From a virus (Duplodnaviria; Caudoviricetes): a stretch of 64,000 nt of DNA. Of this stretch, positions 8,267 to 25,783 are shown in pieces. Positions within the stretch are counted from its first letter, which is position 1. Every line of letters starts with the position of its first letter. Under the pieces are notes generated by a model. The model saw only the letters and a program-made list of their open reading frames with translations. It did no database searches and was not told the DNA's origin. The stretch lies in IMG/VR virus record IMGVR_UViG_3300042010_000129, positions 192,001 to 256,000 of that record, one strand, 5' to 3'. A program made the translations under genes and the position numbers.

Positions 8267-8357
8267 TTTTAACTTCCTCTATTGCGTGAGTGTGTGAATC
8301 GTGGGCGCAACTTGCCCGACTGGATTTCATTGTACCTATGCACCGACGAACGGTCAA
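8267..8357 (-). promoter_or_regulatory. sigma70 promoter-stem-loop-leader cassette P1
   Basis: TTGACC-17-TACAAT, GGGC/GCCC hairpin, ACACTCACGCAATAGAGGAAGTT, ATG. Confidence 0.85.
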
Positions 8358-8363
8358 CAAACG

Positions 8364-8384
8364 AAAACAGCCCCTACAGGGGCC
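8364..8384 (-). terminator. putative intrinsic terminator
   Basis: GCCCC-TGTA-GGGGC then TGTTTT, immediately upstream of P1. Confidence 0.55.
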
Positions 8385-8730
8385 GCTTGCACTCGCTACA
8401 GCATCGTTTGAGCTTGAGGCCGATTCGACCTTGCGCCCATTGCAGGAACAGCCCTTTACGCTCGCCAAGGCCCGATAGCACTTCCGTTGTGTCGTGGGTT
8501 GCACTGGCGGCAACAGCGAGCGCCTTTGCTTCGTCAGCAGTCACCGGGTCAGGGCGCAACACAACGTCGGCGTTTGCGCGGGCCTTTGCATCGGCGCGCA
8601 ATCGTTCCATTGTCGCGGCTGCTGATTTGTACCCGTAACGTTTCAGGTCATCAATGCAGCGCGCCAACTGGTAAGCCGAGATTTCGTGAATCACTGCGTA
8701 ATCGTGAATTGTCGAGAAATAATATTTCAC
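8374..8730 (-). CDS. hypothetical protein
   Basis: 118 aa, GTG start with GGAGG SD, C-terminal CxxC. Confidence 0.7.
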   Translation of the reverse strand: MKYYFSTIHDYAVIHEISAYQLARCIDDLKRYGYKSAAATMERLRADAKARANADVVLRPDPVTADEAKALAVAASATHDTTEVLSGLGERKGLFLQWAQGRIGLKLKRCCSECKRPL

Positions 8731-9416
8731 GCCGCCTCCTTTGGAATTTTGAAAGCCAGATGGTCACTGCCAATCCACGTGCCGTTCGTGGCCGACAGAT
8801 ATTCGATGGTGTTGTATTTGCCGTCGATCAACTGGCGCGGATTTACCACCACGACATAATCTAGGCCGGGCATGTAATAGTTTACAGTTTTGAACATCCG
8901 CTGAAGGTCGAAGCCGAGAACGGATTCCATGACCGGCGATTCTGGATAAAGAAACATCACCCGGTAAAATCCATCCTGCCCCAAAATGCCGGGCAGCGTA
9001 GCAATCGAACAATCCAGCGTTTCGTTTACTTGCAGGTCTACGCCATCCTTTAAAACGTCGAGGCGCATAATCGTGCGACCGTTGCGAAGTGCGGTTGCCA
9101 ATTGATCAAGCCACGGCTCGTTTTGTGTCACGGTGTTGTGCGTGCCGGTGCGATAGTGGAATGACATATCAGGACTGCGCAGCGTCACGCGGTAATCGTT
9201 ATGTTCCATCCATGCACAGAAAATGTGCCGGGGCGCTTTGGCCCAAATTGGCGCCGTGTCGATTCCGTACAATTTCGCAATACGCAGATGCGCACGGAAA
9301 CCAAACAGCGCAGCAACCAAACCCAGCAACGCAGGCAGCACATATTTAATGAAAACGAAAAGCAGGGCAGCAGTGCCCAAAACTTTTAGGATCGTGGACA
9401 TAATCTCGGTGGTCAT
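8727..9416 (-). CDS. N-terminally membrane-anchored protein
   Basis: 229 aa, hydrophobic residues ~8-40, SD GAGGAAGT. Confidence 0.75.
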   Translation of the reverse strand: MTTEIMSTILKVLGTAALLFVFIKYVLPALLGLVAALFGFRAHLRIAKLYGIDTAPIWAKAPRHIFCAWMEHNDYRVTLRSPDMSFHYRTGTHNTVTQNEPWLDQLATALRNGRTIMRLDVLKDGVDLQVNETLDCSIATLPGILGQDGFYRVMFLYPESPVMESVLGFDLQRMFKTVNYYMPGLDYVVVVNPRQLIDGKYNTIEYLSATNGTWIGSDHLAFKIPKEAA

Positions 9417-9454
9417 CTTCTACTTCCTCAGTTGTGAATCGGATTTCATCCCGT

Positions 9455-9480
9455 TGCACACTCTAGCCTCAGAATGTGCA
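9455..9480 (-). other. intergenic hairpin without U-tract
   Basis: TGCACATTCT-GAGGCT-AGAGTGTGCA after the stop at 9488. Confidence 0.55.
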
Positions 9481-9487
9481 GCAGTGA

Positions 9488-9940
9488 TTAGTCCAACACG
9501 ATGGCTTTAATGTACCAGTCCGGCGCCGAAGCGGCGTTGTTGTATTTCAGGTTGTACGCAACACACCACGCATCACGTTCTTCTGCCGTGTCGAATTCCA
9601 ACAGGTCGTCGCGCTTGTTGCCCCAGCCGCGTTCGAATTCCCGCGTTTCCGCGTAGAATTTTCCAGCGGTGCGTTCCGTCACAACTTTACGCGTGCCGGG
9701 AGTTTCCAGAATCGAAACCGGGGCGGGAATGGTCGCCACTACCGAAGCTTCGTCCTTTTCTTTGTCGAGCATGGATTGCGTTTTAAAAGCATCCCATTCT
9801 TTTTCCTCGACCACGCGGGCGCCGCTGTTGATTTCTTTTACGGCGTCGTCAGGCCACAGAATGGATTTCGCTTTGGTCACATCGTTGACCAGCAGCACCA
9901 TACCTTTGAACGTGCCTTTTTTAATCGTGTTGAGGGTCAT
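9488..9940 (-). CDS. hypothetical protein
   Basis: 150 aa, AAGGAG SD. Confidence 0.75.
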   Translation of the reverse strand: MTLNTIKKGTFKGMVLLVNDVTKAKSILWPDDAVKEINSGARVVEEKEWDAFKTQSMLDKEKDEASVVATIPAPVSILETPGTRKVVTERTAGKFYAETREFERGWGNKRDDLLEFDTAEERDAWCVAYNLKYNNAASAPDWYIKAIVLD

Positions 9941-10142
9941 GGCGTTTCTCCTTCGGTTTTAATTTCCGTGCGTGCTGCATGTGTGCCACACGGTCAATTT
10001 TATATTCGTAAGCGGCCATCAGAAAACCGTTACGCATGGCGTTTAAGAAATGACGCTGTGAATAACGCGCCCAGTCAACAGCACTTTGAAAACTTTGTGC
10101 CTCGACAAATTCCGCGTCGGCCACATAATCAGTTTTGTACAT
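9921..10142 (-). CDS. hypothetical protein
   Basis: 73 aa, fills the gap with short overlaps. Confidence 0.5.
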   Translation of the reverse strand: MYKTDYVADAEFVEAQSFQSAVDWARYSQRHFLNAMRNGFLMAAYEYKIDRVAHMQHARKLKPKEKRHDPQHD

Positions 10143-10389
10143 GACTCAGAGCCTTCCGCTTGAACGGGGTTTCCGCGTCCTGCGAGTTGAACCATTCCAG
10201 CAGAGCGGAACGGCGGTAACGCCCCACAATGACGACAGAGCCAAAGCGGGAATCAATGCGGCCTGTTTGCGTCTGACTTGCGGAGTCAGGAACAGGAACC
10301 AATTTTGCGCGCTCACGCAAAGCGCTTTCGGTTACGTGAGTGTGACCGGCCAAATCTTTAAGTGACCACAAAGGTTCGCGTGCTTTCAT
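10129..10389 (-). CDS. winged-HTH protein, excisionase/MerR-like
   Basis: LWSLKDLAGHTHVTESALRERAK ... RYRRSALLEWF pattern. Confidence 0.55.
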   Translation of the reverse strand: MKAREPLWSLKDLAGHTHVTESALRERAKLVPVPDSASQTQTGRIDSRFGSVVIVGRYRRSALLEWFNSQDAETPFKRKALSHVQN

Positions 10390-10775
10390 ATATCTGCGTC
10401 CATAGCTGCTTTACGTTTTGCCGCCGCTTGCTGTGCGTTCCACTTCTTGCCAGCAGCGCGGGTAAATGTCTTGCGGAAACTCCAGCGGAAAATGCCGCTC
10501 CAGCTTGATTCGTTGTTGCTGGTGTTCTCGACGCCCGAATTAAGCAGGCCCCATACAAACAAATCCACGAACACCGCACGCACGAAACGCTTGAACACAC
10601 GCCACATGGAAATGCCGCATTTGTAGAACACGACAGTTTCATACAGGCCGTAACTCAAACCGCGTAGCAACGGGCGAGCCGCAATAAAAGTCATAACTGG
10701 CAAAATCACAAAGCCCGTCATAAAGCAGGCCGCGATGTACCAGTGCGGAAACCAACCCAAAAATGATTCCATCAT
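10386..10775 (-). CDS. membrane-anchored hypothetical protein
   Basis: 129 aa, hydrophobic N-terminus. Confidence 0.7.
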   Translation of the reverse strand: MMESFLGWFPHWYIAACFMTGFVILPVMTFIAARPLLRGLSYGLYETVVFYKCGISMWRVFKRFVRAVFVDLFVWGLLNSGVENTSNNESSWSGIFRWSFRKTFTRAAGKKWNAQQAAAKRKAAMDADI

Positions 10776-11005
10776 GTCTTAATCCCCACAGTGTGTTGAA
10801 CGACCGCGTATTCCGGTTCAGGATTTGCGCGAGTTGGATTTTGGTAGGCAGTTACACGCCCCCAGTAATTTTCCCCGAAATAATCACGCGCTTCAGGATC
10901 GTCCTGAAACACAAAATCGTATTCGAGGGTAAAACCGTCTTCGTCAAAATGCAGTGCAACGTAAGTCGAATCGCCGTGGCGCCCGACCGAGAAATTATTG
11001 AACAT
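10772..11005 (-). CDS. hypothetical protein
   Basis: 77-aa acidic ORF. Confidence 0.7.
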   Translation of the reverse strand: MFNNFSVGRHGDSTYVALHFDEDGFTLEYDFVFQDDPEARDYFGENYWGRVTAYQNPTRANPEPEYAVVQHTVGIKT

Positions 11006-11008
11006 GAT

Positions 11009-11221
11009 TTATTCCACCATTGATTGACAGGTCGTACAGCGCTGCGTGCGTGGAAAGATTTCCAAGCGTGCAGGAAGTATCGGTCTGTCGCAGTCTATGC
11101 AATCGGTGCGCGGTTCCCCTTCTGACGCTTCGAGGTTAATCCGTGCCCGCCTAATTTCGAGGGCGATAATGTTTTCACTTTCTTTTTCCGTGTCGCCCTC
11201 ACGCGCCCAACCTACAGCCAT
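11009..11221 (-). CDS. TraR/DksA C4-type zinc finger protein (YbiI-like)
   Basis: MAVGWA...IRRAR...CIDCDRPILPARLEIFPRTQRCTTCQ parallels E. coli YbiI (MASGWA...ARAR...CEECGAPIPQARREAIPGVRLCIHCQ). Confidence 0.85.
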   Translation of the reverse strand: MAVGWAREGDTEKESENIIALEIRRARINLEASEGEPRTDCIDCDRPILPARLEIFPRTQRCTTCQSMVE

Positions 11222-11279
11222 TTATTTGCCTCCCGTGTTTCATCCTGTTACGCACTCCCAAAGAAATGCGCACCAGCGA

Positions 11280-11552
11280 TTATTCCACCTTGAGTTCCAG
11301 ATGCAGCAGACCTTCCGCTTTCAGCACTTGCGCGAATTCGTGTTCGCCAATGCCTACGTGTTTGCGGGAACCATGAACGGTGGTCAGAATAAAATAATCG
11401 TCATCGTCCACGGTGAACGTGCAGATCAAAACGTTTTTACCGCCCAACACAGTTTCCACGCTGAACAGCCGAGCGTTCGCAAACTGGTTAACGTGTGCCA
11501 CGTGATGCTCGGCAGAGAAAAAACCTTTTATGGTTGAGACAGAGTTGAACAT
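11280..11552 (-). CDS. hypothetical protein
   Basis: 90 aa, GAGGA SD. Confidence 0.7.
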   Translation of the reverse strand: MFNSVSTIKGFFSAEHHVAHVNQFANARLFSVETVLGGKNVLICTFTVDDDDYFILTTVHGSRKHVGIGEHEFAQVLKAEGLLHLELKVE

Positions 11553-11588
11553 TTTTAAATCCTCGTTGGGGCGTCAGTTTCGTCACGC

Positions 11589-11616
11589 CTGCGCACCCAT
11601 GTAAGCCGATGCGCAG
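11589..11616 (-). other. GCAUC-loop-GGUGC intergenic hairpin (long loop)
   Basis: CTGCGCATC-GGCTTACATG-GGTGCGCAG after the stop at 11630. Confidence 0.6.
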
Positions 11617-11629
11617 AATCAACTAGCTG

Positions 11630-12034
11630 TTATTCAGCAACGGGTTTCAAACCGTAGTGTTCGCTTTTACCTTTCTGGAACACTTCCAGCAGCACACCGT
11701 TCATTTCCATTTTCTGGCCCGGCACCAAAAGAATGAGCGTTCCTTTTGGTTGCTTCGACGATGTAATCATCGCGCCGCAATTGTTGATCCAGTATTTTTC
11801 ATGACCGAACTTGTCACACCGTGCCTCGGCTTCGACCGGGCATTCGTTGTACTGCTGCGCGTAGTAGGCAGCACAGCCCGGCGCGACTTCCGGGTACAGC
11901 GTGTCGATACGTGTTTCTTTCGCTACGCAAAATTTCAGGCCGGTGAAGTTGTCCGTCTGTTCGCGGGTCAGAGTAATCACGTCTTGTTCGAGGTCGATAA
12001 TGTCGAAAGCTGGGAAAGAGGCGACGATTTTCAT
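11630..12034 (-). CDS. hypothetical protein
   Basis: 134 aa, AAGGA SD. Confidence 0.75.
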   Translation of the reverse strand: MKIVASFPAFDIIDLEQDVITLTREQTDNFTGLKFCVAKETRIDTLYPEVAPGCAAYYAQQYNECPVEAEARCDKFGHEKYWINNCGAMITSSKQPKGTLILLVPGQKMEMNGVLLEVFQKGKSEHYGLKPVAE

Positions 12035-12075
12035 TTTTGAATTCCTTTACTGTCAGGAGAATGTTTTGCAGCGGT

Positions 12076-12219
12076 TTAGATTTTGGTAGCGCCACGCGGT
12101 TTCGGTGCGTTGCGTTTGGCGCGGCGTTCGAAGTAAACGAAGGTGCCCATGATCGCCAGTACACCAGCCAAGACAGCGATTTCTTTTACGTGGCCGATTG
12201 CGGTAGTAGCGTATTCCAT
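12076..12219 (-). CDS. small single-pass membrane protein (below cutoff)
   Basis: MEYATTAIGHVKEIAVLAGVLAIMGTFVYFERRAKRNAPKPRGATKI. Confidence 0.65.
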   Translation of the reverse strand: MEYATTAIGHVKEIAVLAGVLAIMGTFVYFERRAKRNAPKPRGATKI

Positions 12220-12230
12220 TTCCGTGTTCC

Positions 12231-12458
12231 TTATGCGTTGACGTTTACAGAGTTGATTGTGACTTCGATGTACTTCTGTTCATCGCGGGCGTAGAACGTG
12301 CTGACCACCATGCCCGGCGTCGAACCGTCGTTGCACTTTTCAATTGCTGCCTCTTCCGATTCAGCAACAACGGTGCGCGTAATGTTTTTGGTCAGCTTGG
12401 TATCCAGCAGCACATTAAACAGCGTCACGTTGATAATGCATTTGTAGGCGCGTTTCAT
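12231..12458 (-). CDS. hypothetical protein
   Basis: 75-aa ORF. Confidence 0.7.
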   Translation of the reverse strand: MKRAYKCIINVTLFNVLLDTKLTKNITRTVVAESEEAAIEKCNDGSTPGMVVSTFYARDEQKYIEVTINSVNVNA

Positions 12459-12467
12459 TTTCTGACC

Positions 12468-12611
12468 TCAGATGGATTTGCGAAAGCGGCGAGCGGCTTC
12501 GGTGATTTGTTTTTCGCGGGCTTCTTGTTCCATGCGAATTTGCATGTCCCATTTCCAAGAAGGCTGTTTAGCGGTTTCGGTTTTGCGACGTGCAGTAGTT
12601 GCGTAGGCCAT
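12468..12611 (-). CDS. small basic protein (below cutoff), first gene behind P2
   Basis: MAYATTARRKTETAKQPSWKWDMQIRMEQEAREKQITEAARRFRKSI, preceded by AAGGAAGT. Confidence 0.7.
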   Translation of the reverse strand: MAYATTARRKTETAKQPSWKWDMQIRMEQEAREKQITEAARRFRKSI

Positions 12612-12704
12612 GATTCAAACTTCCTTAATTGCGTGAGTGGCTTTTCTGCGGGCAGCAGAAGCCCGATTGAGGCCAAAGGTATCAAAGGCCCCTATAGGCG
12701 TCAA
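12612..12704 (-). promoter_or_regulatory. sigma70 promoter-stem-loop-leader cassette P2
   Basis: TTGACG-17-TACCTT (TGn extension), CGGGC/GCCCG hairpin, CCACTCACGCAATTAAGGAAGTTTGA. Confidence 0.85.
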
Positions 12705-12781
12705 CAAGTTTCTGCAAAGGCCCCATAACGCCACAGGAACCACGCGCACGCGTATAGAGGAAGAACCGAACGCCAGAAACG

Positions 12782-12815
12782 ACAAAGGCCCCGCCAGCGT
12801 GAACTGGGGAGCCTT
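12782..12815 (-). terminator. putative intrinsic terminator
   Basis: GGC(T)CCCC...GGGGCC then TTTGTCGTTTCTGGC (tail shared with copy F at 23911). Confidence 0.5.
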
Positions 12816-12824
12816 GAGGTTGTG

Positions 12825-13130
12825 CTACGGGTCTACTGTCACGATGCGGGATGCAAACCATTGCCCGGTCTTCTTGCTTTGGTAAATCTCCTTATAGCTG
12901 CCTTCGTACACCGTTCCGTAATCGCCCCGGCTGGCGCGATCCATGTTCCGGTCTTTTTCCATCTGGTAACGAAGCGTGCGGTTTTCGTTTTCCAAATGTA
13001 CGGCGTGCAATTCAGCAGCCATTAACTTTCGGCGCAGTGTGGCAGTCGAACCTAAAAGCTTGAGCGCCAGAATTGCCATGCCTGCAAAACCGAGCGCCAT
13101 CATAAAAGCGGGAATCAGGTCTGGTTCCAT
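12825..13130 (-). CDS. membrane-anchored coiled-coil protein
   Basis: 101 aa, N-terminal hydrophobic helix. Confidence 0.7.
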   Translation of the reverse strand: MEPDLIPAFMMALGFAGMAILALKLLGSTATLRRKLMAAELHAVHLENENRTLRYQMEKDRNMDRASRGDYGTVYEGSYKEIYQSKKTGQWFASRIVTVDP

Positions 13131-13140
13131 GGGCGCCCCC

Positions 13141-13536
13141 TTACGAATGGCAGTCGATTTTTATTTTCGTGCCTGTATCCCGTGCGGCGGTTTCCAAACT
13201 CGGACGCATGTAGTCTGCGTTTTTCGCACACATCGGGGCCGCGCTTTCTTTGCCGTAGAAATCTGCCAGCGGGAAAGTACCGCATTCGCCAGCAGACATT
13301 TTTGTAGCCGGGGTGCAGATTTCAAACTTGAGTGCGGCCAGCGATGCGAACTGGCTCACAGGCAAACCAGATTTGCATTCGAACGTACCGGCGCGCTTTT
13401 CAAGCTTTGCCTGTTCCATCATTCCGTCGCGGTTGAAGCTGCACATAAAGGATGCTTGCGCCGAGTAGAAATCCGCGACTCGAATTTCCTTGCACGGCTG
13501 CCCTGCCAAACACAATTTTAACATCAGCGAAAACAT
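13141..13536 (-). CDS. Cys-containing protein with an internal tandem duplication
   Basis: Two copies of L..C...C....ADFY....MC..N. Confidence 0.7.
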   Translation of the reverse strand: MFSLMLKLCLAGQPCKEIRVADFYSAQASFMCSFNRDGMMEQAKLEKRAGTFECKSGLPVSQFASLAALKFEICTPATKMSAGECGTFPLADFYGKESAAPMCAKNADYMRPSLETAARDTGTKIKIDCHS

Positions 13537-13545
13537 GGTCGTTCC

Positions 13546-15292: not shown

Positions 15293-16810
15293 TTACAGGG
15301 CGCGGAATTCATCGGCAGTAATTTTGCCGGTGAAAGTTGGTTGACCATCAAAGGACATGATCAGGCTGTACGGCAGTGCGCCTTTGTTCTCGGTCACGGC
15401 CACCAGTTGATCGTCACGGGTAACGATGCGAATCACGTTAACCATTTTTTCCTTGCTGCCTTTGATTACACGCACGCCCACGGTTTTGACTTGATCGCGG
15501 GTTGGCTTTTCCGAAACAACCTGCTTGGCAGCTTTTGGCGCCTTTTCAGCTTTTTCGAAATTCAGTTTTGCAGCCTTGCCGTTTACAGTCTTGCGGGTGT
15601 TTTCAGCAGGCTTTGCAGCCGGGGCCGATGCAGCGGTTTTGCCAGCCTTCGACGGAACTTCATGCAGGTCAGCAACGCGGAACTTGCCTTTGACCAAAAC
15701 AATCGACAGCAAAGGAACACGCTTGCCGCTGGTGGTCACTACAACGCGTTCCTGAGTTTCTTTTACGCGAACGATGCTCTGTACGGTTTCGTGTTTACGA
15801 CCGTCCATGAAACCCTCGGCGCGCAATGCGGTAGTGCTGATTTCAGCAACCGGCGCAGCGGCTTTCGGTGCAGCAGTTTTTGCAGCAGGTTTAACCGCAA
15901 CGGTTTTCACCGGGGCTTTTTCGCTGGCGGCGTGTGCAGCTTGCGAAGCGGCCATTTTGTGGTTTTTAACCATTTTGCCTTTCTTGTCGTGGGCGATGTG
16001 CGACGAGAAATGTTTCCACGGCTGCGCCGATTGTTCGAATGCGCGAACTTCGCTCAGTGCAACGCCTTCGTATGCCCACACGGCGGCGTCTTTCAGAGTC
16101 ACGAACAGGGTTTTCGTGTTGCGGTCGTACTCGGCACCGGTCAACTGGGTGCTGGTTTTGATGTTCAGGACGCGAATCGGGAACACACGGCCACCGGCAG
16201 CGGCTGGGGTTTCTTCTGGCAAATCTTCCTGTTCAACGGCAGCAGGTTTTTTGCCGGTGGCTTTCGGTGCAGCAGCGGCTTTTACAGGCGCCGAAGTTTC
16301 AGCAGGGGCGGTGTATTTTTCCACCATATCCAGTTTCACACGCAGCGCGCCGCGATTGTTGAATTCCAGATCGGCAACGGCGATTTTGCTGCCCTTGTCG
16401 GTTACGACGGTGCGCACGTCGTTGATTTTGGAAATGCGCAGAACGTTTTCCTTGGCGCGACCGATCATCACCACGCCCGCTTCACGAATGGCGCCCGATT
16501 TCAGTTCTTCGGCAACCGGTGCAGTTTTCGCGGCAGCAGTTGCTTTCGGTGCAGCAGTTGCTTTCGGTGCAGCAGCGGCTTTTGCAGCGGCAGGCTTAAC
16601 AGATGCAGCAGCCGGTTTCGAAGCGTCGGCCTGTTTAGCGGCAAACTCTTTGCGCCAGTTTTTCAGGTCACGCAGTTTTACGCCGGGGGAAACTTCGGTG
16701 CCGATGCCGGGCACTTCCACGCCCGCTTTTTTAGCGGCGGAGATTTGCGCGGTCAGAGCGTCAACAGCAGCAACCAGCAGAGCAGTGGTGTTCAGAGTAG
16801 TGTTAGTCAT
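15293..16810 (-). CDS. KTSC-domain protein with Ala/Lys/Pro-rich (histone H1/AlgP-like) linkers and three repeated beta domains
   Basis: TSTQLTGAEYDRNTKTLFVTLKDAAVWAYEGVALSEVRAFEQSAQPWKHFSSHI fits the KTSC pattern; KPAA/APKA repeats. Confidence 0.75.
   Translation of the reverse strand: MTNTTLNTTALLVAAVDALTAQISAAKKAGVEVPGIGTEVSPGVKLRDLKNWRKEFAAKQADASKPAAASVKPAAAKAAAAPKATAAPKATAAAKTAPVAEELKSGAIREAGVVMIGRAKENVLRISKINDVRTVVTDKGSKIAVADLEFNNRGALRVKLDMVEKYTAPAETSAPVKAAAAPKATGKKPAAVEQEDLPEETPAAAGGRVFPIRVLNIKTSTQLTGAEYDRNTKTLFVTLKDAAVWAYEGVALSEVRAFEQSAQPWKHFSSHIAHDKKGKMVKNHKMAASQAAHAASEKAPVKTVAVKPAAKTAAPKAAAPVAEISTTALRAEGFMDGRKHETVQSIVRVKETQERVVVTTSGKRVPLLSIVLVKGKFRVADLHEVPSKAGKTAASAPAAKPAENTRKTVNGKAAKLNFEKAEKAPKAAKQVVSEKPTRDQVKTVGVRVIKGSKEKMVNVIRIVTRDDQLVAVTENKGALPYSLIMSFDGQPTFTGKITADEFRAL
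16533..16568. repeat. 18-bp coding tandem repeat (2 exact copies plus a partial)
   Basis: gcagcagttgctttcggt x2, encodes APKATA. Confidence 0.85.
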
Positions 16811-16903
16811 TTTCGAAACTTCCTAAATAGTGTGAGTGTGATACTGCGTCGGCGTGATTGCCGATTGGATTTCAGAATGCCATTACAGGCGCCAAGGTGT
16901 CAA
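16811..16903 (-). promoter_or_regulatory. sigma70 promoter-stem-loop-leader cassette P3
   Basis: TTGACA-18-CATTCT, TCGGC/GCCGA hairpin, ACACTCACACTATTTAGGAAGTTT. Confidence 0.8.
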
Positions 16904-17683: not shown

Positions 17684-17684
17684 T

Positions 17685-17966
17685 TCACTTACTCCCATCG
17701 AGTGGTGGTATCGGGGGCACGTTCCAGTCAAGAATCAAAGGCGCCCACAAAATGACAAGGTACAGCCACACGCAAAAGCCAACGAAAAACTTCCAGCGCC
17801 ACGGCATACGTTTCATGCCGTTATAAAGGTTGGCGCTCTTTTTATCCGTCGCGTGAGTCTGGCACACGTAGTAGGTCATGAGGGCGGCAAACACGAAACC
17901 CAAAATTAAATACAGGGCAACGGCAACCGCCAGCACATAACCTAAAGCCAAAAACATTTCGTTCAC
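17685..17966 (-). CDS. two-TM membrane protein
   Basis: 93 aa, two hydrophobic helices. Confidence 0.7.
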   Translation of the reverse strand: MNEMFLALGYVLAVAVALYLILGFVFAALMTYYVCQTHATDKKSANLYNGMKRMPWRWKFFVGFCVWLYLVILWAPLILDWNVPPIPPLDGSK

Positions 17967-18313
17967 TCGGCCTCCTTTGGCAGTCCGGCGAAAATACCGG
18001 GGCCAGTTGTATGTGGTTCCAAACGCAGACCATGCTGACGTGCATAATCCAGTTCACGCGGCGAATATGTGCGCTCTTCGTAATCCTGCCCAAAGGCAAC
18101 CGATTTGCGAACGGTGATTCCGCCGTCGCTGTTCACACGAAACGCCTGTTTACCGAAAACGGGAAAACCGATCAGGGCGCGTTGAGTTTTTGCGTCGAGG
18201 CGGATTTCTTTGTTTTCCAAATCCTGCACGGCGATGGTTTCGAAGAACGAAAGAACGCCTGCGTGATTAGGAACGGCCCAGCTTTCGATTTCGGTGAATT
18301 GCATCCGGCTCAT
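17963..18313 (-). CDS. hypothetical protein, first gene behind P4
   Basis: 116 aa from MSRMQF. Confidence 0.75.
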   Translation of the reverse strand: MSRMQFTEIESWAVPNHAGVLSFFETIAVQDLENKEIRLDAKTQRALIGFPVFGKQAFRVNSDGGITVRKSVAFGQDYEERTYSPRELDYARQHGLRLEPHTTGPGIFAGLPKEAE

Positions 18314-18402
18314 TGTCAAACTTCCTTAATTGCGTGAGTGTCTAAATCGCAGGCACAGTTTGCCCGCCACCAAAGAATCTCAAAACCGGGTTCCGGTGTC
18401 AA
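18314..18402 (-). promoter_or_regulatory. sigma70 promoter-stem-loop-leader cassette P4
   Basis: TTGACA-17-GATTCT (TGn extension), GGGCA/TGCCT hairpin, ACACTCACGCAATTAAGGAAGTTTGA. Confidence 0.8.
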
Positions 18403-18608: not shown

Positions 18609-18640
18609 AAAGCAGAAAGCCGGGAACTGCCCCCGGCTTC
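18609..18640 (-). terminator. putative intrinsic terminator
   Basis: GAAGCCGGG...CCCGGCTTTC then TGCTTT. Confidence 0.55.
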
Positions 18641-19096: not shown

Positions 19097-19321
19097 TTAT
19101 TCCTCGGGGTTTTTTGGTTCGTTGGGTTTATCCAGCGCTTTCAAAACAGCGACCGTCAGAAAGGCCGCTGCTAATTGTGCGTCGAATGCTTTACGGCGAC
19201 TGTCGTAGTAGCGCTTGACCGACAGGGCCTTGGAAATTTCGCACCACGCGAAAATAACCATGCCCAGCAGAATTGCGCCCATGATAATTCGCAGCCACCA
19301 GATCGGTTCTATTTCGTTCAC
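19097..19321 (-). CDS. small membrane protein
   Basis: 74 aa, TM helix. Confidence 0.65.
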   Translation of the reverse strand: MNEIEPIWWLRIIMGAILLGMVIFAWCEISKALSVKRYYDSRRKAFDAQLAAAFLTVAVLKALDKPNEPKNPEE

Positions 19322-20369: not shown

Positions 20370-20425
20370 GGTTTCAATTCCTTGATAAAGGTCACTACCG
20401 ACAAACCCCGCACAGGGCGGGGTAG
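20370..20425 (-). repeat. CCCGC-hairpin cassette (copy B)
   Basis: TACCCCGCCCTGTGCGGGGTTTGTCGGTAGTGACCTTTATCAAGGAATT. Confidence 0.8.
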
Positions 20426-20437
20426 TGGTGCAGCTAT

Positions 20438-20809
20438 TTAGGCGCGGCGAACTTTGCCCTTACGCGGATATTTGTTTTTCGTTTTCTTCGCCCGCGTGAA
20501 AAGCAGCGCCATGTTTTCCGGCTGCGACTTTATATAGCTGTCGTGCCACAGGGCATTGCGCAGCGTGCGCAGATCGCACGGGCCTATATCATCCTTGCCC
20601 GGTGTAACGAGCATGCAGCCATTACCTTCGTGTGGAATCACGATGGTGGCGCGGGTGAAAATGAACTGGCAAATATCAATCGCCAGATGATCCGCTTCCT
20701 GCCGGGTTTTCAATTCGAACACAGTGTCGAGCGGCCCCGGCACAATGTGCGGGTTAGGTGCGAACAGCGCTTGAATTTGGGGCAGTTGCGAAAGCATGGA
20801 ATTTTGCAT
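20438..20809 (-). CDS. hypothetical protein
   Basis: 123 aa, basic C-terminus. Confidence 0.7.
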   Translation of the reverse strand: MQNSMLSQLPQIQALFAPNPHIVPGPLDTVFELKTRQEADHLAIDICQFIFTRATIVIPHEGNGCMLVTPGKDDIGPCDLRTLRNALWHDSYIKSQPENMALLFTRAKKTKNKYPRKGKVRRA

Positions 20810-20824
20810 GGTCAGATCCTCAGA

Positions 20825-21028
20825 TTAAAGTTTAATTCGTTTCACTTTCACGGTCGGGCACTTCGTACAGTGCATCGTGAAGCTGCGGTGATGGATTACA
20901 CCCGCGTGCGCCATATCAACATCAATAATGCGACCATACTGATCAGAACGCCATGCCACATTTTTGATATGCACCACTTTATAATTGTGGTCGCACAGAC
21001 CAAGAAGCCAACGCAGAATTTTAATCAC
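20825..21028 (-). CDS. small Zn-binding protein (CxH ... CxxC)
   Basis: LLGLCDHNY ... HCTKC. Confidence 0.65.
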   Translation of the reverse strand: MIKILRWLLGLCDHNYKVVHIKNVAWRSDQYGRIIDVDMAHAGVIHHRSFTMHCTKCPTVKVKRIKL

Positions 21029-21531
21029 TTGGCTTTCTCCACGACAGCAACGCGTTTGTGTTCACGGCGGGCGTTACCGGTTACGCAGCGTTTGTCTTTA
21101 GCGCCTGCCATCCAAACAAATGCAGGCGTGATACGAACCACGTAATGGCAATAAAGCGTCGATCCGCTGCAATCCCCGTAGGCCACCAAATCACCGAGGC
21201 CGATTTCCACGCCGCGCACGTCACACGGTGCTTTCTCTTTTGCAACGCCTTTCTTTTTTGCCAACGCCTCTTTTCTCGGCATGGACTTATCGTGGCGTGC
21301 AGGTTTCGAGGTCTGCTCTTCCTGCGCAACTTCCCGCGTGTCTTTCAACCTGCAAATCGCCGCCAGTTCTTCAACGGTCGAAATCGACATGTCAGCCACG
21401 GAAAGGAAATCCATGAATTCCGGCGCGTTTCCAGAAATGTCGAACAACGCGTGCCCGCTGCCGTAGCAACGAATTTTCATGTTGTTGGGTTTCAGGCGGC
21501 GGTTCACTTTGGCGATGTTGTTCGGGGTCAT
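21025..21531 (-). CDS. hypothetical protein
   Basis: 168 aa, behind cassette C. Confidence 0.75.
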   Translation of the reverse strand: MTPNNIAKVNRRLKPNNMKIRCYGSGHALFDISGNAPEFMDFLSVADMSISTVEELAAICRLKDTREVAQEEQTSKPARHDKSMPRKEALAKKKGVAKEKAPCDVRGVEIGLGDLVAYGDCSGSTLYCHYVVRITPAFVWMAGAKDKRCVTGNARREHKRVAVVEKAK

Positions 21532-21596
21532 GGTTTTGTTCCTTGATAAAGGTCGATTTGGTTTACTACTGACAAAGCCCGCACATGGCGGGCTAA
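21532..21596 (-). repeat. CCCGC-hairpin cassette (copy C)
   Basis: AGCCCGCCATGTGCGGGCTTTGTCAGTAGTAAACCAAATCGACCTTTATCAAGGAA. Confidence 0.8.
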
Positions 21597-21607
21597 GTGT
21601 TCAGGTT

Positions 21608-21883
21608 TTAATTAATTCGCACTGCGGGCTTCTGCCCCATCTTGCAAACCAGCGAACCGTTTTCGTTGATGCGCGATTCTGGCGTACACATCCAGATTTG
21701 CACATTCTTGGAACGGGTAGGGCCACCACGCTGTTTATCCGACTCGGCAATTGCTTCGTCGAGATTCGCGCCCTTGCCCCAGTAACCGGAATCGCACGCG
21801 AAAATGAAATGCGTCAGCGACTGGTCAACGGTGGCCGGATCAACGCGCAATTCGAATTTACCCATTTTCAATTTGTTCGCCAT
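21608..21883 (-). CDS. hypothetical protein (paralog of 16900..17178)
   Basis: 91 aa, shared motif. Confidence 0.75.
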   Translation of the reverse strand: MANKLKMGKFELRVDPATVDQSLTHFIFACDSGYWGKGANLDEAIAESDKQRGGPTRSKNVQIWMCTPESRINENGSLVCKMGQKPAVRIN

Positions 21884-21885
21884 TT

Positions 21886-22146
21886 TTAATTTCCTTGTCC
21901 GTGGTCACGATTCAGAACCGCTTCGATACGAATTCTGAGTGGGTCTTGCATTGGTTTCGAACGGGTGTAGCACTGCGCAATTGTTTCGCGCAGCAATTCC
22001 CGCAACTCTTCAACTTCGGTCAACGCTTTGGCCGGGGCGCCGCGTGGATCTAATCGACCGCACGCCAAGCATTCACCGTAGTACGGATCGGCTTCAGTTA
22101 CATCGCTGCACGCCGGGCAATATTCGTCATCGTGTTGGTCGCACAT
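21886..22146 (-). CDS. zinc-finger-containing protein
   Basis: CPAC ... CLAC. Confidence 0.65.
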   Translation of the reverse strand: MCDQHDDEYCPACSDVTEADPYYGECLACGRLDPRGAPAKALTEVEELRELLRETIAQCYTRSKPMQDPLRIRIEAVLNRDHGQGN

Positions 22147-22149
22147 TGT

Positions 22150-22635
22150 TCAGCCCTCAAAACCGTTTGCTTTGTCTTCCGCGAAAAACGCATGGGGGAA
22201 TTTGCTGCGATCAAAATTCCCACCTTCCGGATGCGTGGCGAGATAAAATTGTGCGCGGCGTTCTGCTTCCATGCCCCGGCGAATAGTTTCTTCCAGATCC
22301 CACAATTCTTGCATTTCGTGTTTGTGGATATATTCACCGCTTGGCTTGCGGCTCAACTCTTCGCGGCGGGCCTGCAATTTGCGGATCATTTCGAAACCCG
22401 GCTGTTCTGGCTTGGGTTCCATTTTCGCAACCAGTTCACGACCTTCAGCAACCCACTGATCGAAACCCAAATGGTTCAAGGCGCAAACCACGACGCTGTG
22501 CGTTTCGTACAGGCCTTTCGGTTGGTTGTCGTAGGAGAAATAATAGTAGCCTTCACCTTTGTGCAAATTCAGGTGGTCGCAGCCGATGGCTTTCATAATG
22601 GCGGCAGTGGTAATGCGTTTGGTGGTCGTGGTCAT
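22150..22635 (-). CDS. hypothetical protein
   Basis: 161 aa, behind cassette D. Confidence 0.75.
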   Translation of the reverse strand: MTTTTKRITTAAIMKAIGCDHLNLHKGEGYYYFSYDNQPKGLYETHSVVVCALNHLGFDQWVAEGRELVAKMEPKPEQPGFEMIRKLQARREELSRKPSGEYIHKHEMQELWDLEETIRRGMEAERRAQFYLATHPEGGNFDRSKFPHAFFAEDKANGFEG

Positions 22636-22700
22636 TTTTGCATTCCTTGATAAAGGGCGATTTGTTTTACTACCGACAAACCCCGCACAGGGCGGGGGCT
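22636..22700 (-). repeat. CCCGC-hairpin cassette (copy D)
   Basis: AGCCCCCGCCCTGTGCGGGGTTTGTCGGTAGTAAAACAAATCGCCCTTTATCAAGGAA. Confidence 0.8.
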
Positions 22701-22707
22701 ATTTGTA

Positions 22708-23034
22708 TCAGTCGTTCGACCAATTTACATCGGTTTCAACACCGTGGCGGTTGATGATTTTCAACGCACGGGGTTTCCTGTTTTCCTCTTCAACCGCTTT
22801 GTATGCGTCGGAGGCCTGCACAGAAGTTTTCCCGGCGATGTAATCTTTCAGGAAAATCATTTCCAGTTCACCGCCACGATAAACCTCACGGCCCAGCAGC
22901 GATTCGGTTTCGGTCAGCCACTGTTCATAAGCGGCACGTTCGTCGTGAGTCACAGGATGGCCGAACATTTCAGCCAACCACTTTTCAAATGCGGCGCGTT
23001 GCTTCACAGGTATTTTGCTATTGAAGTCTGTCAT
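22708..23034 (-). CDS. hypothetical protein
   Basis: 108 aa, AGGAG SD. Confidence 0.75.
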   Translation of the reverse strand: MTDFNSKIPVKQRAAFEKWLAEMFGHPVTHDERAAYEQWLTETESLLGREVYRGGELEMIFLKDYIAGKTSVQASDAYKAVEEENRKPRALKIINRHGVETDVNWSND

Positions 23035-23061
23035 TCGAATTTCTCCTAAGCACGAAATGTG

Positions 23062-23097
23062 CTACTACCTACAAACCCCGCACAGGGCGGGGTAGTT
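23062..23097 (-). repeat. CCCGC-hairpin cassette (copy E, partial)
   Basis: CTACCCCGCCCTGTGCGGGGTTTGTAGGTAGTAG. Confidence 0.75.
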
Positions 23098-23099
23098 GG

Positions 23100-23387
23100 T
23101 TAATGCATTGTCAGGACTTCTACAATCTCACCGCCGAAAACGCCAGTGCTGCGTATTCGTTCGCTGTCGTGATTCCATCGTGGCTGGTGCTTTTCCATCG
23201 GCGCATAAACCGTGTCAGCATCCATATCAACGCACATCGTGTCAGGTGCATTTACCCAACGCAGAACTTCGGTGACGGTGCCTGTACCGGTCGAACCGTG
23301 ACGGCTTTTAATTCGTACACGCGTGCCTTTCTGAATCTTGCGGCCTTCGTGGGTAATGAAATACGGGATTGCGTTTTTGTGTCCCAT
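23100..23387 (-). CDS. hypothetical protein (possible SH3/KOW-like barrel)
   Basis: 95 aa, GTRVRIKS..G.TGTGTVTEV. Confidence 0.65.
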   Translation of the reverse strand: MGHKNAIPYFITHEGRKIQKGTRVRIKSRHGSTGTGTVTEVLRWVNAPDTMCVDMDADTVYAPMEKHQPRWNHDSERIRSTGVFGGEIVEVLTMH

Positions 23388-23397
23388 GCTACTGACC

Positions 23398-23775
23398 TCA
23401 GAAATTAACCATGCGGTTGGAACCGGTGCGGCCCATCTTCAAAATAGCGCCGTCTTTATAGTAGACAGCGATATTCGTTTCCAGACCTTCGCGGCTGTAG
23501 CAATAGAAGTCGATCACGGCGCGACCGTCTTCGGTCAATGGAACGCCAGCACGGAAACCAGCCCACGAAATAAAATCGTTCAGGTCTGTGTCCTGCCAGT
23601 CTTCCGTTTTTGCAACCAGCGCAATGTTCAACGACTGTTCAATTGTGCCGTCTTGCAGATTGATACGCGTGCCGCCTTCCATTCGAGTAAGGCCCCGGAC
23701 TTCGCGTTTGGTGAAGTCGCGAATCCGTTTGCATTCGTCGGCGGTCGGTTTCCATACGTTGTGTTTAGCGGCCAT
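23398..23775 (-). CDS. hypothetical protein, first gene behind P5
   Basis: 125 aa from MAAKHN. Confidence 0.75.
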   Translation of the reverse strand: MAAKHNVWKPTADECKRIRDFTKREVRGLTRMEGGTRINLQDGTIEQSLNIALVAKTEDWQDTDLNDFISWAGFRAGVPLTEDGRAVIDFYCYSREGLETNIAVYYKDGAILKMGRTGSNRMVNF

Positions 23776-23867
23776 TTCAAACTTCCCTAATTGCGTGAGT
23801 GTTAGATTAGCGGACACAGAAAGTCCGTTGAGGCCCCAAAGGTATCAAAGCACCTATAGAACGTCAA
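23776..23867 (-). promoter_or_regulatory. sigma70 promoter-stem-loop-leader cassette P5
   Basis: TTGACG-17-TACCTT, CGGAC/GTCCG hairpin, ACACTCACGCAATTAGGGAAGTTTGA. Confidence 0.85.
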
Positions 23868-23910
23868 ACGGTTTCGGAAACGGCCCGGAAACCAAACCGG
23901 GGGCCAGAAA

Positions 23911-23937
23911 CGACAAAGCCCGCACAGGGCGGGCTAA
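23911..23937 (-). repeat. CCCGC-hairpin cassette (copy F), terminator-like
   Basis: TAGCCCGCCCTGTGCGGGCTTTGTCG. Confidence 0.75.
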
Positions 23938-23984
23938 GTGGTTGCTATATAGAGAACGTGGCGCTACGGGCGCAGGGCGGGCAT

Positions 23985-24494
23985 CTAGGCTGCTTCGTTT
24001 AGCACAAGCTGCATCGCCTGCCGATCCGGGTAGAACGTGGCGACGTGGCGCATGATCGAAAGCGGACGGCCCCACAGTTCCAGATTGCGGCCCCGGTCGA
24101 AATACACGGTGCAAAGTTTTTCACCGGGCAACGGGCCTTTGACAAAACGCAAACCGTCAGCGATTCGCATATGGGCCAATGCCTGTTCTTTTTTCGCCTG
24201 ATAGAAATCCGTCGTCGTGTCGGTATCGGTCAGCGTTTGCAACCCGGCAATAAATCCGTGCGTGCTTGTGTTTCGTTTTGCGGCGTCAACCGCAATGTCA
24301 CTCATTGGCGTGTGGTCGAAATACGCCAGCGCCTTGCTTAGAAATTCGAGCAATTCGTTTTTGTGCGGCACGTACTGCTGATTTTCGAGCAACTGCAATT
24401 GCTCCTTTGTAATGCACACGTATGCGGCAAGGTCAGCTTGACCAATGGCGAGGCGTTTGCGCCAGACTTGAATTTTGCGGCCTGATAGTTTCAT
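23985..24494 (-). CDS. XRE/Cro-family HTH protein with a C-terminal extension
   Basis: IQVWRKRLAIGQADLAAYVCITKEQLQLLENQQYVP fits the HTH_3 pattern. Confidence 0.75.
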   Translation of the reverse strand: MKLSGRKIQVWRKRLAIGQADLAAYVCITKEQLQLLENQQYVPHKNELLEFLSKALAYFDHTPMSDIAVDAAKRNTSTHGFIAGLQTLTDTDTTTDFYQAKKEQALAHMRIADGLRFVKGPLPGEKLCTVYFDRGRNLELWGRPLSIMRHVATFYPDRQAMQLVLNEAA

Positions 24495-24520
24495 GCGTGA
24501 AGTCCATTTTATTCGGGCAT

Positions 24521-24548
24521 AAAAAAGCCCCGCACAGGGCGAGGCTTT
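24521..24548 (-). terminator. intrinsic terminator (CCCGC-hairpin family copy G)
   Basis: AAAAGCCTCGCCCTGTGCGGGGCTTTTTT. Confidence 0.75.
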
Positions 24549-24562
24549 TCCGTTACGGGGTT

Positions 24563-24997
24563 TTACTGCTGGTGATTGGCGAACAGTTCCTGCATAAGCG
24601 CAGCAGCCTTCACCGGATCGGCATCAGCAGGAATTTCCACGCTGACCATTTGTTTCTTTGCTTTGTTGCGAACGGTCGTGTTGTAAAACAGATTGCGGGC
24701 AGTGTCGCTAACCGACTGCGGTTCGCCCGGCGCGGCCAAACGAGTCAGTACCCAAATCTCACATTCGTATTCGCACGCAACCCAGTCGCCATACTTCTTG
24801 TGGAAACCGGAACCCGTCAGTTGATCGCAGATTTGTTCCGCGAACTGAGTACGGGTCAGCTTGGAAAATTTCATCGCGCTGAACATTGCACGAATGTCGA
24901 AGAAAACCGTTGTCTTGCTGGCGACCTTCGCAGCATCCACCATCGAGAGAACTTGGGTTTCAACTTTTGTAATGTCAGCAGGATCGTACTTAGCCAT
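24563..24997 (-). CDS. hypothetical protein
   Basis: 144 aa, AAGGA SD. Confidence 0.75.
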   Translation of the reverse strand: MAKYDPADITKVETQVLSMVDAAKVASKTTVFFDIRAMFSAMKFSKLTRTQFAEQICDQLTGSGFHKKYGDWVACEYECEIWVLTRLAAPGEPQSVSDTARNLFYNTTVRNKAKKQMVSVEIPADADPVKAAALMQELFANHQQ

Positions 24998-25085
24998 CGT
25001 TTTGTTTCCTTTGCCAACCTATATGAATGCACCGGGCGCCATGCCGGTCAGCAGTAGCCAGCGCCTAGTGTTTGTTGCTCTGTAG

Positions 25086-25095
25086 TATTTACAGT
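25086..25095 (-). promoter_or_regulatory. ACTGTAAATA motif
   Basis: Intergenic, about 90 nt upstream of ATG 24997. Confidence 0.6.
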
Positions 25096-25102
25096 TTTTC
25101 GA

Positions 25103-25477
25103 TCACAGCAAAATGCCTGTGCGGATCAGGTGTACAAACCCGCCCGGATCGAAGCTGAAAGATTTCTGATTGATGCGGTATTTATTCAGCAGATTGAAAA
25201 AGCGGTTCTGCTGGTACTGGTCGGTTTCGTCCAGATATTTAACGTCGTCACAAACCGCCGCCTGTAGATAGGCAACGTCTTTGTCTGCGCGTTCGCTGTC
25301 CGGGCTTTTCGTCAGGTGGTTGACGTACACGTCTTCGAGCCGAACGATTGCATGCAGCAGCGGCAACGGCACGTCGGAAAGCGATGGAATGTAGAAGAAC
25401 GCAATTTCTTCCGGAATCTGCTCGTAACAAAGCAGAATGTTGTCGCGTTTGTGTTCGCTCAATGATTGTTCGCTCAT
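25103..25477 (-). CDS. hypothetical protein
   Basis: 124 aa, GGAG SD. Confidence 0.75.
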   Translation of the reverse strand: MSEQSLSEHKRDNILLCYEQIPEEIAFFYIPSLSDVPLPLLHAIVRLEDVYVNHLTKSPDSERADKDVAYLQAAVCDDVKYLDETDQYQQNRFFNLLNKYRINQKSFSFDPGGFVHLIRTGILL

Positions 25478-25490
25478 AGCGTCACTCCAA

Positions 25491-25694
25491 TTATTGTTTC
25501 ACGTAGACGGTAATATCGTCGTCCTGCAAAACATATTCGTCACGGGTTTGGCGGCAAACGTCCAGATCATCATCTGTTGCGATAATCACTTCGTTAACGT
25601 TTCCGTCCGGCATTCTACGAAGCACGGCGGCAGAGAAACCACTGATCATCATTGCGCCCAGTTTCAAACCCATAGAGGCCAGTGAATCGCTCAT
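25491..25694 (-). CDS. hypothetical protein, first gene behind P6
   Basis: 67 aa. Confidence 0.7.
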   Translation of the reverse strand: MSDSLASMGLKLGAMMISGFSAAVLRRMPDGNVNEVIIATDDDLDVCRQTRDEYVLQDDDITVYVKQ

Positions 25695-25783
25695 GGAAAA
25701 CTTCCCTTATTTCGTGAGTGTAGTTACGTCGGGCACAGGGGTGCCACGCTGCACAGTATGCACTTCTAGAGCGCTGGCGTCAA
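25695..25783 (-). promoter_or_regulatory. sigma70 promoter-stem-loop-leader cassette P6
   Basis: TTGACG-17-CATACT, GGCAC/GTGCC hairpin, ACACTCACGAAATAAGGGAAGTTT. Confidence 0.85.

Follow-up and report, generated by a model that had tools for sequence, protein, structure and literature searches.

The DNA analysed here is a 64,000-nucleotide stretch of a caudoviricete virus (positions 192,001 to 256,000 of IMG/VR record IMGVR_UViG_3300042010_000129), called the window below. It contains six copies of an expression cassette in which a sigma70-type promoter is followed by a GC-rich hairpin, a conserved leader box joined to a Shine-Dalgarno (SD) sequence, and a start codon. The first-pass annotation had located the six sites without stating their strand; all six were found again and all lie on the minus strand. 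Our preferred explanation, to which we give a probability of about 0.55, is that the cassettes are early sigma70 promoters whose messages would carry a stabilising 5' hairpin and a box/SD unit acting on the mRNA at the ribosome-binding site. Over the matched pieces, the window was most similar to the Pseudomonas phages HRDY3 (~69% identity) and Lu11 (~65%), and the comparison places its source among the Lu11/HRDY3-like jumbo phages. The Lu11 group of jumbo phages has no RNA polymerase of its own and encodes sigma-like factors (PMC7412058).

The composite pattern CACTCACNNNATNNNGGAAGTT was matched exactly six times in the 64 kb, where dinucleotide shuffles gave an expectation of 0.03 with up to two mismatches allowed. 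The significance rests on this composite pattern because CACTCAC alone was not enriched in the window and occurred at chance level (8 copies against 6.2 expected). A covariance model (R1) was built from 36 cassette copies and run with the filters off. When the window was searched with it, as the first-pass annotation had proposed, exactly the six cassettes were returned at 52-87 bits and the next match had 10 bits. The six cassettes and their first genes, each an open reading frame (ORF), are the following.

8264..8357 (-): c8267, 66 bits; -35 TTGACC 8357-8352; -10 TACAAT 8334-8329, no TG; stem GGGC 8317-8314 / GCCC 8306-8303; box 8292-8286; GGAAGTT 8277-8271; ATG 8266-8264; gene 7802-8266 (-), a 154-aa ORF
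12609..12704 (-): c12612, 78 bits; -35 TTGACG 12704-12699; TGA+TACCTT 12681-12676; stem CGGGC 12665-12661 / GCCCG 12653-12649; box 12639-12633; GGAAGTT 12624-12618; ATG 12611-12609; gene 12468-12611 (-), a 47-aa basic ORF
16808..16903 (-): c16811, 61 bits; -35 TTGACA 16903-16898; 18-nt spacer; TGG+CATTCT 16879-16874; stem TCGGC 16864-16860 / GCCGA 16853-16849; box 16838-16832; GGAAGTT 16823-16817; ATG 16810-16808; gene 15293-16810 (-), a 505-aa KTSC-domain protein (PF13619, 1.3e-8)
18311..18402 (-): c18314, 87 bits, the top covariance-model match; -35 TTGACA 18402-18397; TGA+GATTCT 18379-18374; stem GCGGGCA 18367-18361 / TGCCTGC 18355-18349 with one G.U pair; box 18340-18334; GGAAGTT 18325-18319; ATG 18313-18311; gene 17963-18313 (-), a 116-aa ORF
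23773..23867 (-): c23776, 78 bits; -35 TTGACG 23867-23862; TGA+TACCTT 23844-23839; stem CGGAC 23827-23823 / GTCCG 23815-23811; box 23801-23795; GGAAGTT 23786-23780; ATG 23775-23773; gene 23398-23775 (-), a 125-aa ORF, phrog_19710
25692..25783 (-): c25695, 52 bits; -35 TTGACG 25783-25778; CATACT 25760-25755; stem GGCAC 25745-25741 / GTGCC 25736-25732; box 25720-25714; GGAAGTT 25705-25699; ATG 25694-25692; gene 25491-25694 (-), a 67-aa ORF

The six copies share one anatomy. The -35 element reads TTGAC(A/C/G) in all of them and is separated from the -10 element by 17 nt in five copies and by 18 nt in c16811. The -10 hexamers are TACAAT, TACCTT (twice), CATTCT, GATTCT and CATACT, and in four of the six a TG stands at -15/-14, one base 5' of the hexamer. 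The hairpin starts 6-11 nt after the -10 and has a GC stem of 4-7 bp and a loop of 4-7 nt. After a further 8-11 nt the CACTCAC box follows, which is separated from GGAAGTT by exactly 8 nt in every copy, so that the box unit is 22 nt long (CACTCAC-N8-GGAAGTT). The distance from GGAAGTT to the ATG is 4-6 nt.

Absence of the box from related phages had been named beforehand as grounds for giving up the idea of a functional leader; the box is kept in relatives. Lu11 has 9 copies of its pattern and two complete ~310-kb IMG/VR genomes have 12 each, with 0 or 1 match for the reversed control, and the covariance model detected 11 significant copies in HRDY3. The model found no copies in PaBG, Dickeya phage AD1, phage NCTB and Achromobacter phage Motura, and there was none in the 35-kb record nearest to the window (G001). 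In total, 60 covariance-model matches were collected, 47 of them distinct. A scan of 185,579 bacterial genomes for the box gave at least 120 scattered single matches, and the cassette layout was present in none of the matches listed; by our calculation several hundred chance matches are expected in that many genomes. We regard the cassette as specific to the Lu11 subclade and not as a host motif.

The cassettes precede the same gene families in the same order in Lu11, HRDY3 and the two ~310-kb relatives. Whole-cassette identity was 0.70 between orthologs, 0.54 between paralogs and 0.54 between unrelated cassettes from different genomes. Since the paralogs stay at background identity, there is no concerted evolution and the cassettes are inherited vertically. 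Mobility of the cassettes is not supported by these values and by the conserved order.

Promoter, hairpin and leader

In an alignment of 36 promoter copies from at least six phages, no variation was seen in TTGAC, in the G of TGn, or in A2 and T6 of the -10 hexamer; the rest of the hexamer and the spacer of 17 or 18 nt vary freely. Because the invariant positions are those read by sigma70, we assign the cassettes with high confidence to the sigma70 promoters of the host RNA polymerase. TGn was present in 31 of the 36 copies; the best hexamers (TACAAT, TATACT twice, CATAAT and CATACT) are those of the remaining five. This trade-off reads as classical compensation, a signature of functional sigma70 promoters with an extended -10. 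Within the 64-kb window, no TTGAC with an extended -10 was found besides the cassettes. Promoter type and gene content together suggest that these promoters are probably early. In the Lu11 record JQ768459, the annotation notes a similarity to the early promoter consensus for two orthologous promoters, 9922-9948 and 11602-11632. In the 12.5 kb of Lu11 that was inspected, the cassettes at 48-143, 4440-4536 and 6249-6345 have no annotated regulatory feature, and both the hairpin and the 22-nt leader box are unannotated.

A second promoter class, apparently phage-specific and served by a phage sigma factor, is represented by the motif ACTGTAAATA. Seven exact copies were found in the window, all on the minus strand and mostly between 25 and 43 kb, and ten copies with at most one mismatch, where 1.95 were expected. 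The motif equals the 'putative middle/late promoter' of Lu11 at 11172-11187 (JQ768459).

25-34, 25086-25095, 30422-30431, 35105-35114, 36402-36411, 38081-38090 and 42471-42480, all (-): exact copies of ACTGTAAATA

The leader box never accompanied ACTGTAAATA promoters and is therefore tied to the host-type promoter class. The standardised module of the first-pass annotation has thus held up in this form: sigma70-type promoters joined to a standard leader make up a conserved module in front of blocks of ORFan genes and are a class apart from the ACTGTAAATA promoters.

In c8267, the -35 and the spacer read TTGACCGTTCGTCGG, which contains an AlgR-type site, ACCGTTCGTC (8343-8354, -). The site is kept in the orthologous promoters of HRDY3, of the relative G002 and of one metagenomic phage; the relative G003 has CCGTCTGTC, and the Lu11 cassette at L012 9939-10035 does not contain the site. 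It is a candidate target of a phage LytTR protein or of the host AlgR. A stand-alone protein with a LytTR DNA-binding domain (124 aa, PF04397, 9e-12) is encoded at 25766-26140 (-), directly 5' of c25695, and the -35 of the c25695 promoter overlaps the 3' end of its gene. The syntenic gene is annotated as 'putative response regulator receiver protein' in Lu11 and as 'LytTr DNA-binding domain' protein in HRDY3.

All 46 distinct copies inspected had a GC-rich stem-loop in the interval from the -10 to the box. The stems have 4-10 bp and the loops mostly 4-7 nt; the hairpins start 4-11 nt after the -10 and mostly end 7-10 nt before the box. In the window copies, the core stems would begin about 0-4 nt after the expected transcription start. 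The hairpin is followed by an A-rich tract and not by a U-run and is therefore not an intrinsic terminator. It had been claimed that the stem sequence differs between the copies while the pairing is kept. This is true for c16811 (TCGGC/GCCGA), c23776 (CGGAC/GTCCG) and c25695 (GGCAC/GTGCC), but most stems are variants of (C/T)GGGC...GCC(C/T)G. Between orthologs, the outer pair is G-C in HRDY3 and G003 and A-T in Lu11. The share of paired cells was 70.7% compared to 65.4+/-1.5% in shuffles, with none of 500 shuffles reaching the observed value, and it was 56% and 43% when the partners were slid by one column. These pair counts understate the pairing, since the covariance-model alignment left the short-loop subfamily misaligned. 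RNAalifold gave no consensus structure on a MAFFT alignment because the hairpins are out of register between the subfamilies. A function of the hairpin at the RNA level is likely, and a role as message stabiliser, which is proposed by analogy, is held with moderate confidence.

Among the 45 distinct copies compared, the leader keeps the pattern C-N-N-TCAC-N4-T-N3-GGAAGTT(T) essentially without variation; TCAC, the single T and GGAAGTT are conserved at 100%. No insertion or deletion was found between the box and the SD, but the spacing of this unit from the hairpin and from the ATG differs between copies. Leader identity was 0.73 between orthologs, 0.68 between paralogs in one genome and 0.67 between unrelated pairs, and this near-equality in all classes of pairs shows that the leader is held to a common consensus by selection. 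The identity of the promoter spacer dropped from 0.69 between orthologs to 0.42. GGAAGTT was identified as the SD because, by inspection, 8 of 9 positions can pair between GGAAGU and the 3' end of the 16S ribosomal RNA (rRNA), the anti-SD. Among the ~118 minus-strand genes, GGAAGTT serves as SD only behind the cassettes, and the other genes have AGGA, GGAG, GAGG or GGAGG. It is not the general SD of the phage, and the earlier view that the conserved box goes beyond promoter or SD function is borne out, also for GGAAGTT. The leader region is poor in G (13%) and mostly unpaired in centroid folds.

Known elements were also considered for the leader, and the search in Rfam gave no relevant family match for the cassette. 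A CsrA/RsmA target would call for at least two A(N)GGA motifs, with one or more in a hairpin loop and one over the SD, and was rejected: there is one GGA per leader, the three preceding bases vary and the 5' hairpin loops have no GGA. Pairing of the box with 16S rRNA was limited to ACUCAC with GUGAGU in a buried helix, and an RNase E site (RNWUU), a -35 element for an extracytoplasmic function (ECF) sigma factor in GGAAGTT and a CRP half-site were poor or partial matches, all by inspection.

Variants and neighbouring genes

The c12612 cassette and its gene have orthologs in HRDY3, G002, G003, Lu11 and the contig M, and c16811 has orthologs in 5 of 5 relatives. Other cassettes are followed by different genes in different phages. 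Behind c25695, the window, HRDY3 and G002 have the 67-aa gene; Lu11 and G003 lack it, and in them the following gene is fused to the same leader. The c23776-type cassette is followed either by a 125-aa gene (the window, Lu11 and one metagenomic phage) or by an unrelated 75-aa gene (HRDY3, G002 and G003), and the two are mutually exclusive. These comparisons show that gene gain, loss and replacement fall exactly on the start codon of the cassette, although the cassettes stay put.

The c8267 ortholog has a different leader in HRDY3, G002 and G003. Here, a GGGAAGT/ACTTCCC hairpin and a U-run are followed by a separate GAGGA SD and ATG. The window copy, c8267, does not have this hairpin, and its gene is joined directly to the cassette SD. 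With the cassette SD as one of its arms, the hairpin is possibly a promoter-proximal terminator or attenuator, or the source of a short RNA. The orthologs with this terminator-like hairpin in the 5' untranslated region (5'UTR) are:

L001 9285-9388 (-)
L059 3205-3305 (+)
L013 5514-5650 (+)

Two cassettes ~170 nt apart in tandem were observed at L052 7213-7483 (-) and in the HRDY3 record at 148290-148562 (-), and the arrangement is kept in G002, G003 and HRDY3. The first cassette of the pair has no ORF and may give a non-coding early transcript; the second has GCAAGTT in place of GGAAGTT and uses a downstream GGAG as SD. An isolated box with neither promoter nor ORF was found at L008 3675-3804 (G002, ~268.2 kb). 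It abuts the -35 of a divergent promoter (TTGACA-N17-TACCTT), itself without hairpin and box, and may be the remnant of a rearrangement.

Terminator-like sites were enriched in the region (53 against 31.7 expected). Three of them lie 5' of cassettes:

8365..8388 (-): intrinsic-terminator-like hairpin with T-run, directly 5' of the c8267 -35; 10 pairs, 6 GC
23917..23935 (-): intrinsic-terminator-like hairpin with T-run, ~50 nt 5' of the c23776 -35; 7 pairs, 6 GC
18616..18640 (-): intrinsic-terminator-like hairpin, ~210 nt 5' of c18314; 11 pairs

The cassette region at 8-26 kb contains small ORFans without family matches. In Pfam and PHROG searches with the first genes behind the cassettes, only the KTSC domain and the phrog of unknown function were matched, and among twenty further ORFs of the region only LytTR and VgrG3-like C-terminal domains. 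The first genes, which the first-pass annotation had put forward as host-takeover or anti-defence candidates, had no informative family match. Two proteins with a C-terminal domain like that of VgrG3 of the type VI secretion system (PF21277, E ~5e-54 each) are encoded on the minus strand of the window. One is a stand-alone protein of 202 aa at 26150-26758 (-) and adjoins the LytTR gene; the other, at 44883-48401 (-) in the tail module, has 1172 aa and carries a VanY peptidase domain as well. The segment at 44-54 kb, where there is no cassette, encodes tail sheath and spike/lysozyme proteins. The runs listed for the window segment 8000-17900 were all of DNA, none of RNA; they came from rhizosphere, plant and soil metagenomes, and the segment was also present as contigs in two wastewater DNA runs with a 5-6% share.

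Explanations of the cassette

We propose that the six cassettes are promoters for the host RNA polymerase, of the sigma70 type with an extended -10, in an ORFan-rich and probably early region. Each cassette would open a transcription unit, several of them just past a terminator. Transcription would start ~7 nt after the -10, which would place the GC hairpin 0-4 nt from the 5' end of the mRNA, and the hairpin would there most likely protect the message from 5'-end-dependent decay like an ompA-type 5' stem-loop. The rigid 22-nt C-N-N-TCAC-N4-T-N3-GGAAGTT unit would then work in the RNA, as a single recognition surface located at the ribosome-binding site. This action at the RNA level is speculative and may be thought of in two versions. 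The box/SD unit may be a dedicated translational enhancer of early messages, or it may be a common operator or target for a phage factor that handles all early mRNAs, like RegA or RegB of T4. RegA is a translational repressor, and RegB is an SD-cutting nuclease that cleaves GGAG in early SDs.

The second version can be worded more sharply: the 22-nt unit would be the RNA operator of all early messages in Lu11-like jumbo phages and would be read by one phage protein or nuclease. In this form it is a tentative idea with perhaps one chance in a few of being right. It is suggested by the class-specific conservation of the box, and the factor would turn the whole early class off, or on in the terminator-bearing variant. 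In HRDY3, G002 and G003, a binder of the box/SD could switch the structure because the GGGAAGT/ACTTCCC hairpin then could not form.

Several observations weigh against an early sigma70 module with a stabilising hairpin and an RNA-acting box/SD unit. The transcription start, the timing and the promoter activity are all read from the sequence. Since the collection of copies relied in part on the box itself, its invariance looks higher than it is. The accessibility of the leader was not above that of shuffled leaders (0.61 against 0.54 for the box, 0.49 against 0.55 for the SD). The covariation in the hairpin is modest, with double changes in just 3 of 6 pairs, no better than in shuffles, and the stem sequence is fairly conserved, so that a palindrome acting at the DNA level is possible. 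Sense and antisense strands folded equally well (25 against 20 copies, p=0.2). No candidate RNA-binding factor turned up, with homologues of RegA and RegB not specifically sought.

An operator at the DNA level would explain the conserved parts differently. A phage DNA-binding protein encoded in the same region would bind the box/GGAAGTT (about +35 to +55) or the hairpin palindrome (+1 to +25) and act as a roadblock that shuts off the early promoters. The candidates are the stand-alone LytTR protein and the helix-turn-helix (HTH) regulators annotated in HRDY3 and Lu11. Consistent with this, the LytTR gene (9e-12) lies directly 5' of c25695 with regulators annotated at the syntenic place in Lu11 and HRDY3, the exact AlgR-type site in the c8267 promoter is conserved in 4 of 5 orthologs, and the strand folding test shows no RNA preference. 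The invariant AAGTT resembles the core of LytTR sites, (A/C)(C/A)GTT, and the stems resemble GGGCA-N5-TGCCC palindromes. Operators usually overlap the promoter core, however, whereas the box unit overlaps the SD with rigid spacing and stands at a variable distance from the promoter. Box and GGAAGTT are not direct repeats and make a poor inverted repeat (by inspection, 6 of 11 positions are symmetric), and the three stems in which the sequence is changed and the pairing kept (those of c16811, c23776 and c25695) and the G.U pairs speak against a base-specific reading of the hairpin by a protein. We find a DNA operator unlikely. We are similarly reserved about the view that the leader is just an optimised, unstructured ribosome-loading region, a standby or S1 site with an extended SD and no dedicated trans-acting factor. 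The scarcity of G, the mostly unpaired centroid folds and the 8/9 pairing with the anti-SD agree with it. A need for accessibility cannot, however, account for the invariant TCAC, the single T and the non-canonical A of GGAAGTT, the exact 8-nt spacing and the ordinary SDs at ~110 other genes of the same phage would stay unexplained, and the accessibility was no better than in shuffled leaders.

Processive antitermination of the nut/rrn type is distinctly improbable. The hairpin and box would correspond to boxB and boxA in this order and would load a factor on the RNA polymerase for read-through of internal terminators. The succession of promoter, hairpin, a gap of 8-10 nt and a conserved linear box is indeed that of rrn leaders, the terminator-like sites are enriched, and in one ortholog group the box is followed immediately by a promoter-proximal terminator. 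But the boxA consensus, UGCUCUUUAACAA or CGCUCUUA, was matched at only about 4-6 of 13 positions (by inspection), and Rfam gave no family match. Strong terminators immediately 5' of new cassettes look as if transcription units end there, and the rigid coupling of the box to the SD would be needless for such a signal. The chance is smaller still for a recombination module similar to the promoter-early-stem-loop (PeSL) cassettes, in which a repeated promoter block would serve gene shuffling and the box would be conserved through recent duplication or gene conversion. The cassettes do lie in an ORFan-rich region, and the gene content does change exactly at their ATG, as with the 67-aa gene and the exchange of the 125-aa for the 75-aa gene. 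This explanation is largely refuted by the paralogs, which are no more alike than unrelated cassettes and less alike than orthologs. The order of the cassettes is conserved from the window to Lu11, and around the invariant box the identity of spacer, loop and coding DNA has fallen to ~65-70%.

Relation to known systems

The early-type promoters of Lu11 are already partly annotated, and cassettes of promoter, stem-loop and SD are known from T4-type phages. Our literature search found nothing on HRDY3, nor on regulatory motifs of Lu11 beyond the GenBank annotation, and no description of a hairpin-plus-box leader in Lu11-like phages. Nearly all genes of these phages are 'hypothetical'. The cassettes provide a sequence-defined map of the host-dependent transcription units, about 9-12 per genome, in a poorly studied clade of jumbo phages, and these units are cleanly separable from the phage-sigma class of ACTGTAAATA. 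The invariant box beside a non-canonical SD is a short target that can be mutated, which makes the question of a class-wide post-transcriptional control of early mRNAs, and of the factor behind it, testable. As compact promoter/5'UTR parts, the cassettes might also serve for expression in hosts of the Pseudomonas putida group. If the box is merely a good ribosome-loading sequence, the cassettes represent an ordinary early-promoter architecture.

Like the Lu11-type cassettes, the PeSL cassettes known from T4-type phages (Arbiol et al. 2010, PMC2839356; Comeau et al. 2014, PMC4122927) repeat a unit of sigma70-like early promoter, GC stem-loop and SD/ATG, lie upstream of ORFans in a plastic region, and have gene insertions, deletions and replacements at their boundary. 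Their stem-loop is a terminator or attenuator of upstream transcription and lies over or between the -35 and -10, 5' of them, or just before the start (PMC2839356). The Lu11-type hairpin, in contrast, starts 4-11 nt downstream of the -10 within the transcribed part and has no U-run, and the terminators are separate structures upstream. The -10 of PeSL cassettes is near consensus and they have no conserved leader box, whereas the Lu11-type hexamers are weak and rely on the extended -10 TG, and a leader box is present. The Lu11-type cassettes, which belong to an unrelated phage lineage, show no sign of homogenisation or mobility. The parallel to PeSL drawn in the first-pass annotation is therefore only a loose one, since the PeSL stem-loops are terminators within or around the promoter.

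A 5'-terminal stem-loop that stabilises the mRNA, hp1 of the ompA 5'UTR, was reportedly described by Emory, Bouvet and Belasco in 1992. Hairpins of this type leave no more than about 2-4 unpaired nt at the 5' end. The Lu11-type cassettes may resemble such a stabiliser in their predicted stable hairpin a few nucleotides from the presumed 5' end, with a ribosome-binding region after it that is predicted to be mostly unpaired, and in a stem with some freedom of sequence whose pairing seems to be kept. For a pure stabiliser, however, the stem sequence is more conserved than needed. Short RNAs from premature termination in 5'UTRs are common in Pseudomonas phages (Putzeys et al. 2024, PMC10914365). 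Similarly, the hairpin in the c8267 orthologs of HRDY3, G002 and G003 would, as far as its sequence tells, yield a short RNA of ~70 nt together with read-through.

With the RegA and RegB systems of T4, the Lu11-type cassettes share a feature at or beside the SD that is common to many early mRNAs of a large virulent phage, and a class-wide shut-off is conceivable. They differ in their sites: RegA has a loosely defined operator and the target of RegB is the canonical GGAG, whereas here the site is a rigid 22-mer with a non-canonical GGAAG. If the 22-nt unit were indeed an RNA operator, a phage lineage unrelated to T4 would possess an analogue of RegA/RegB control, acting through a site that is sharply defined.

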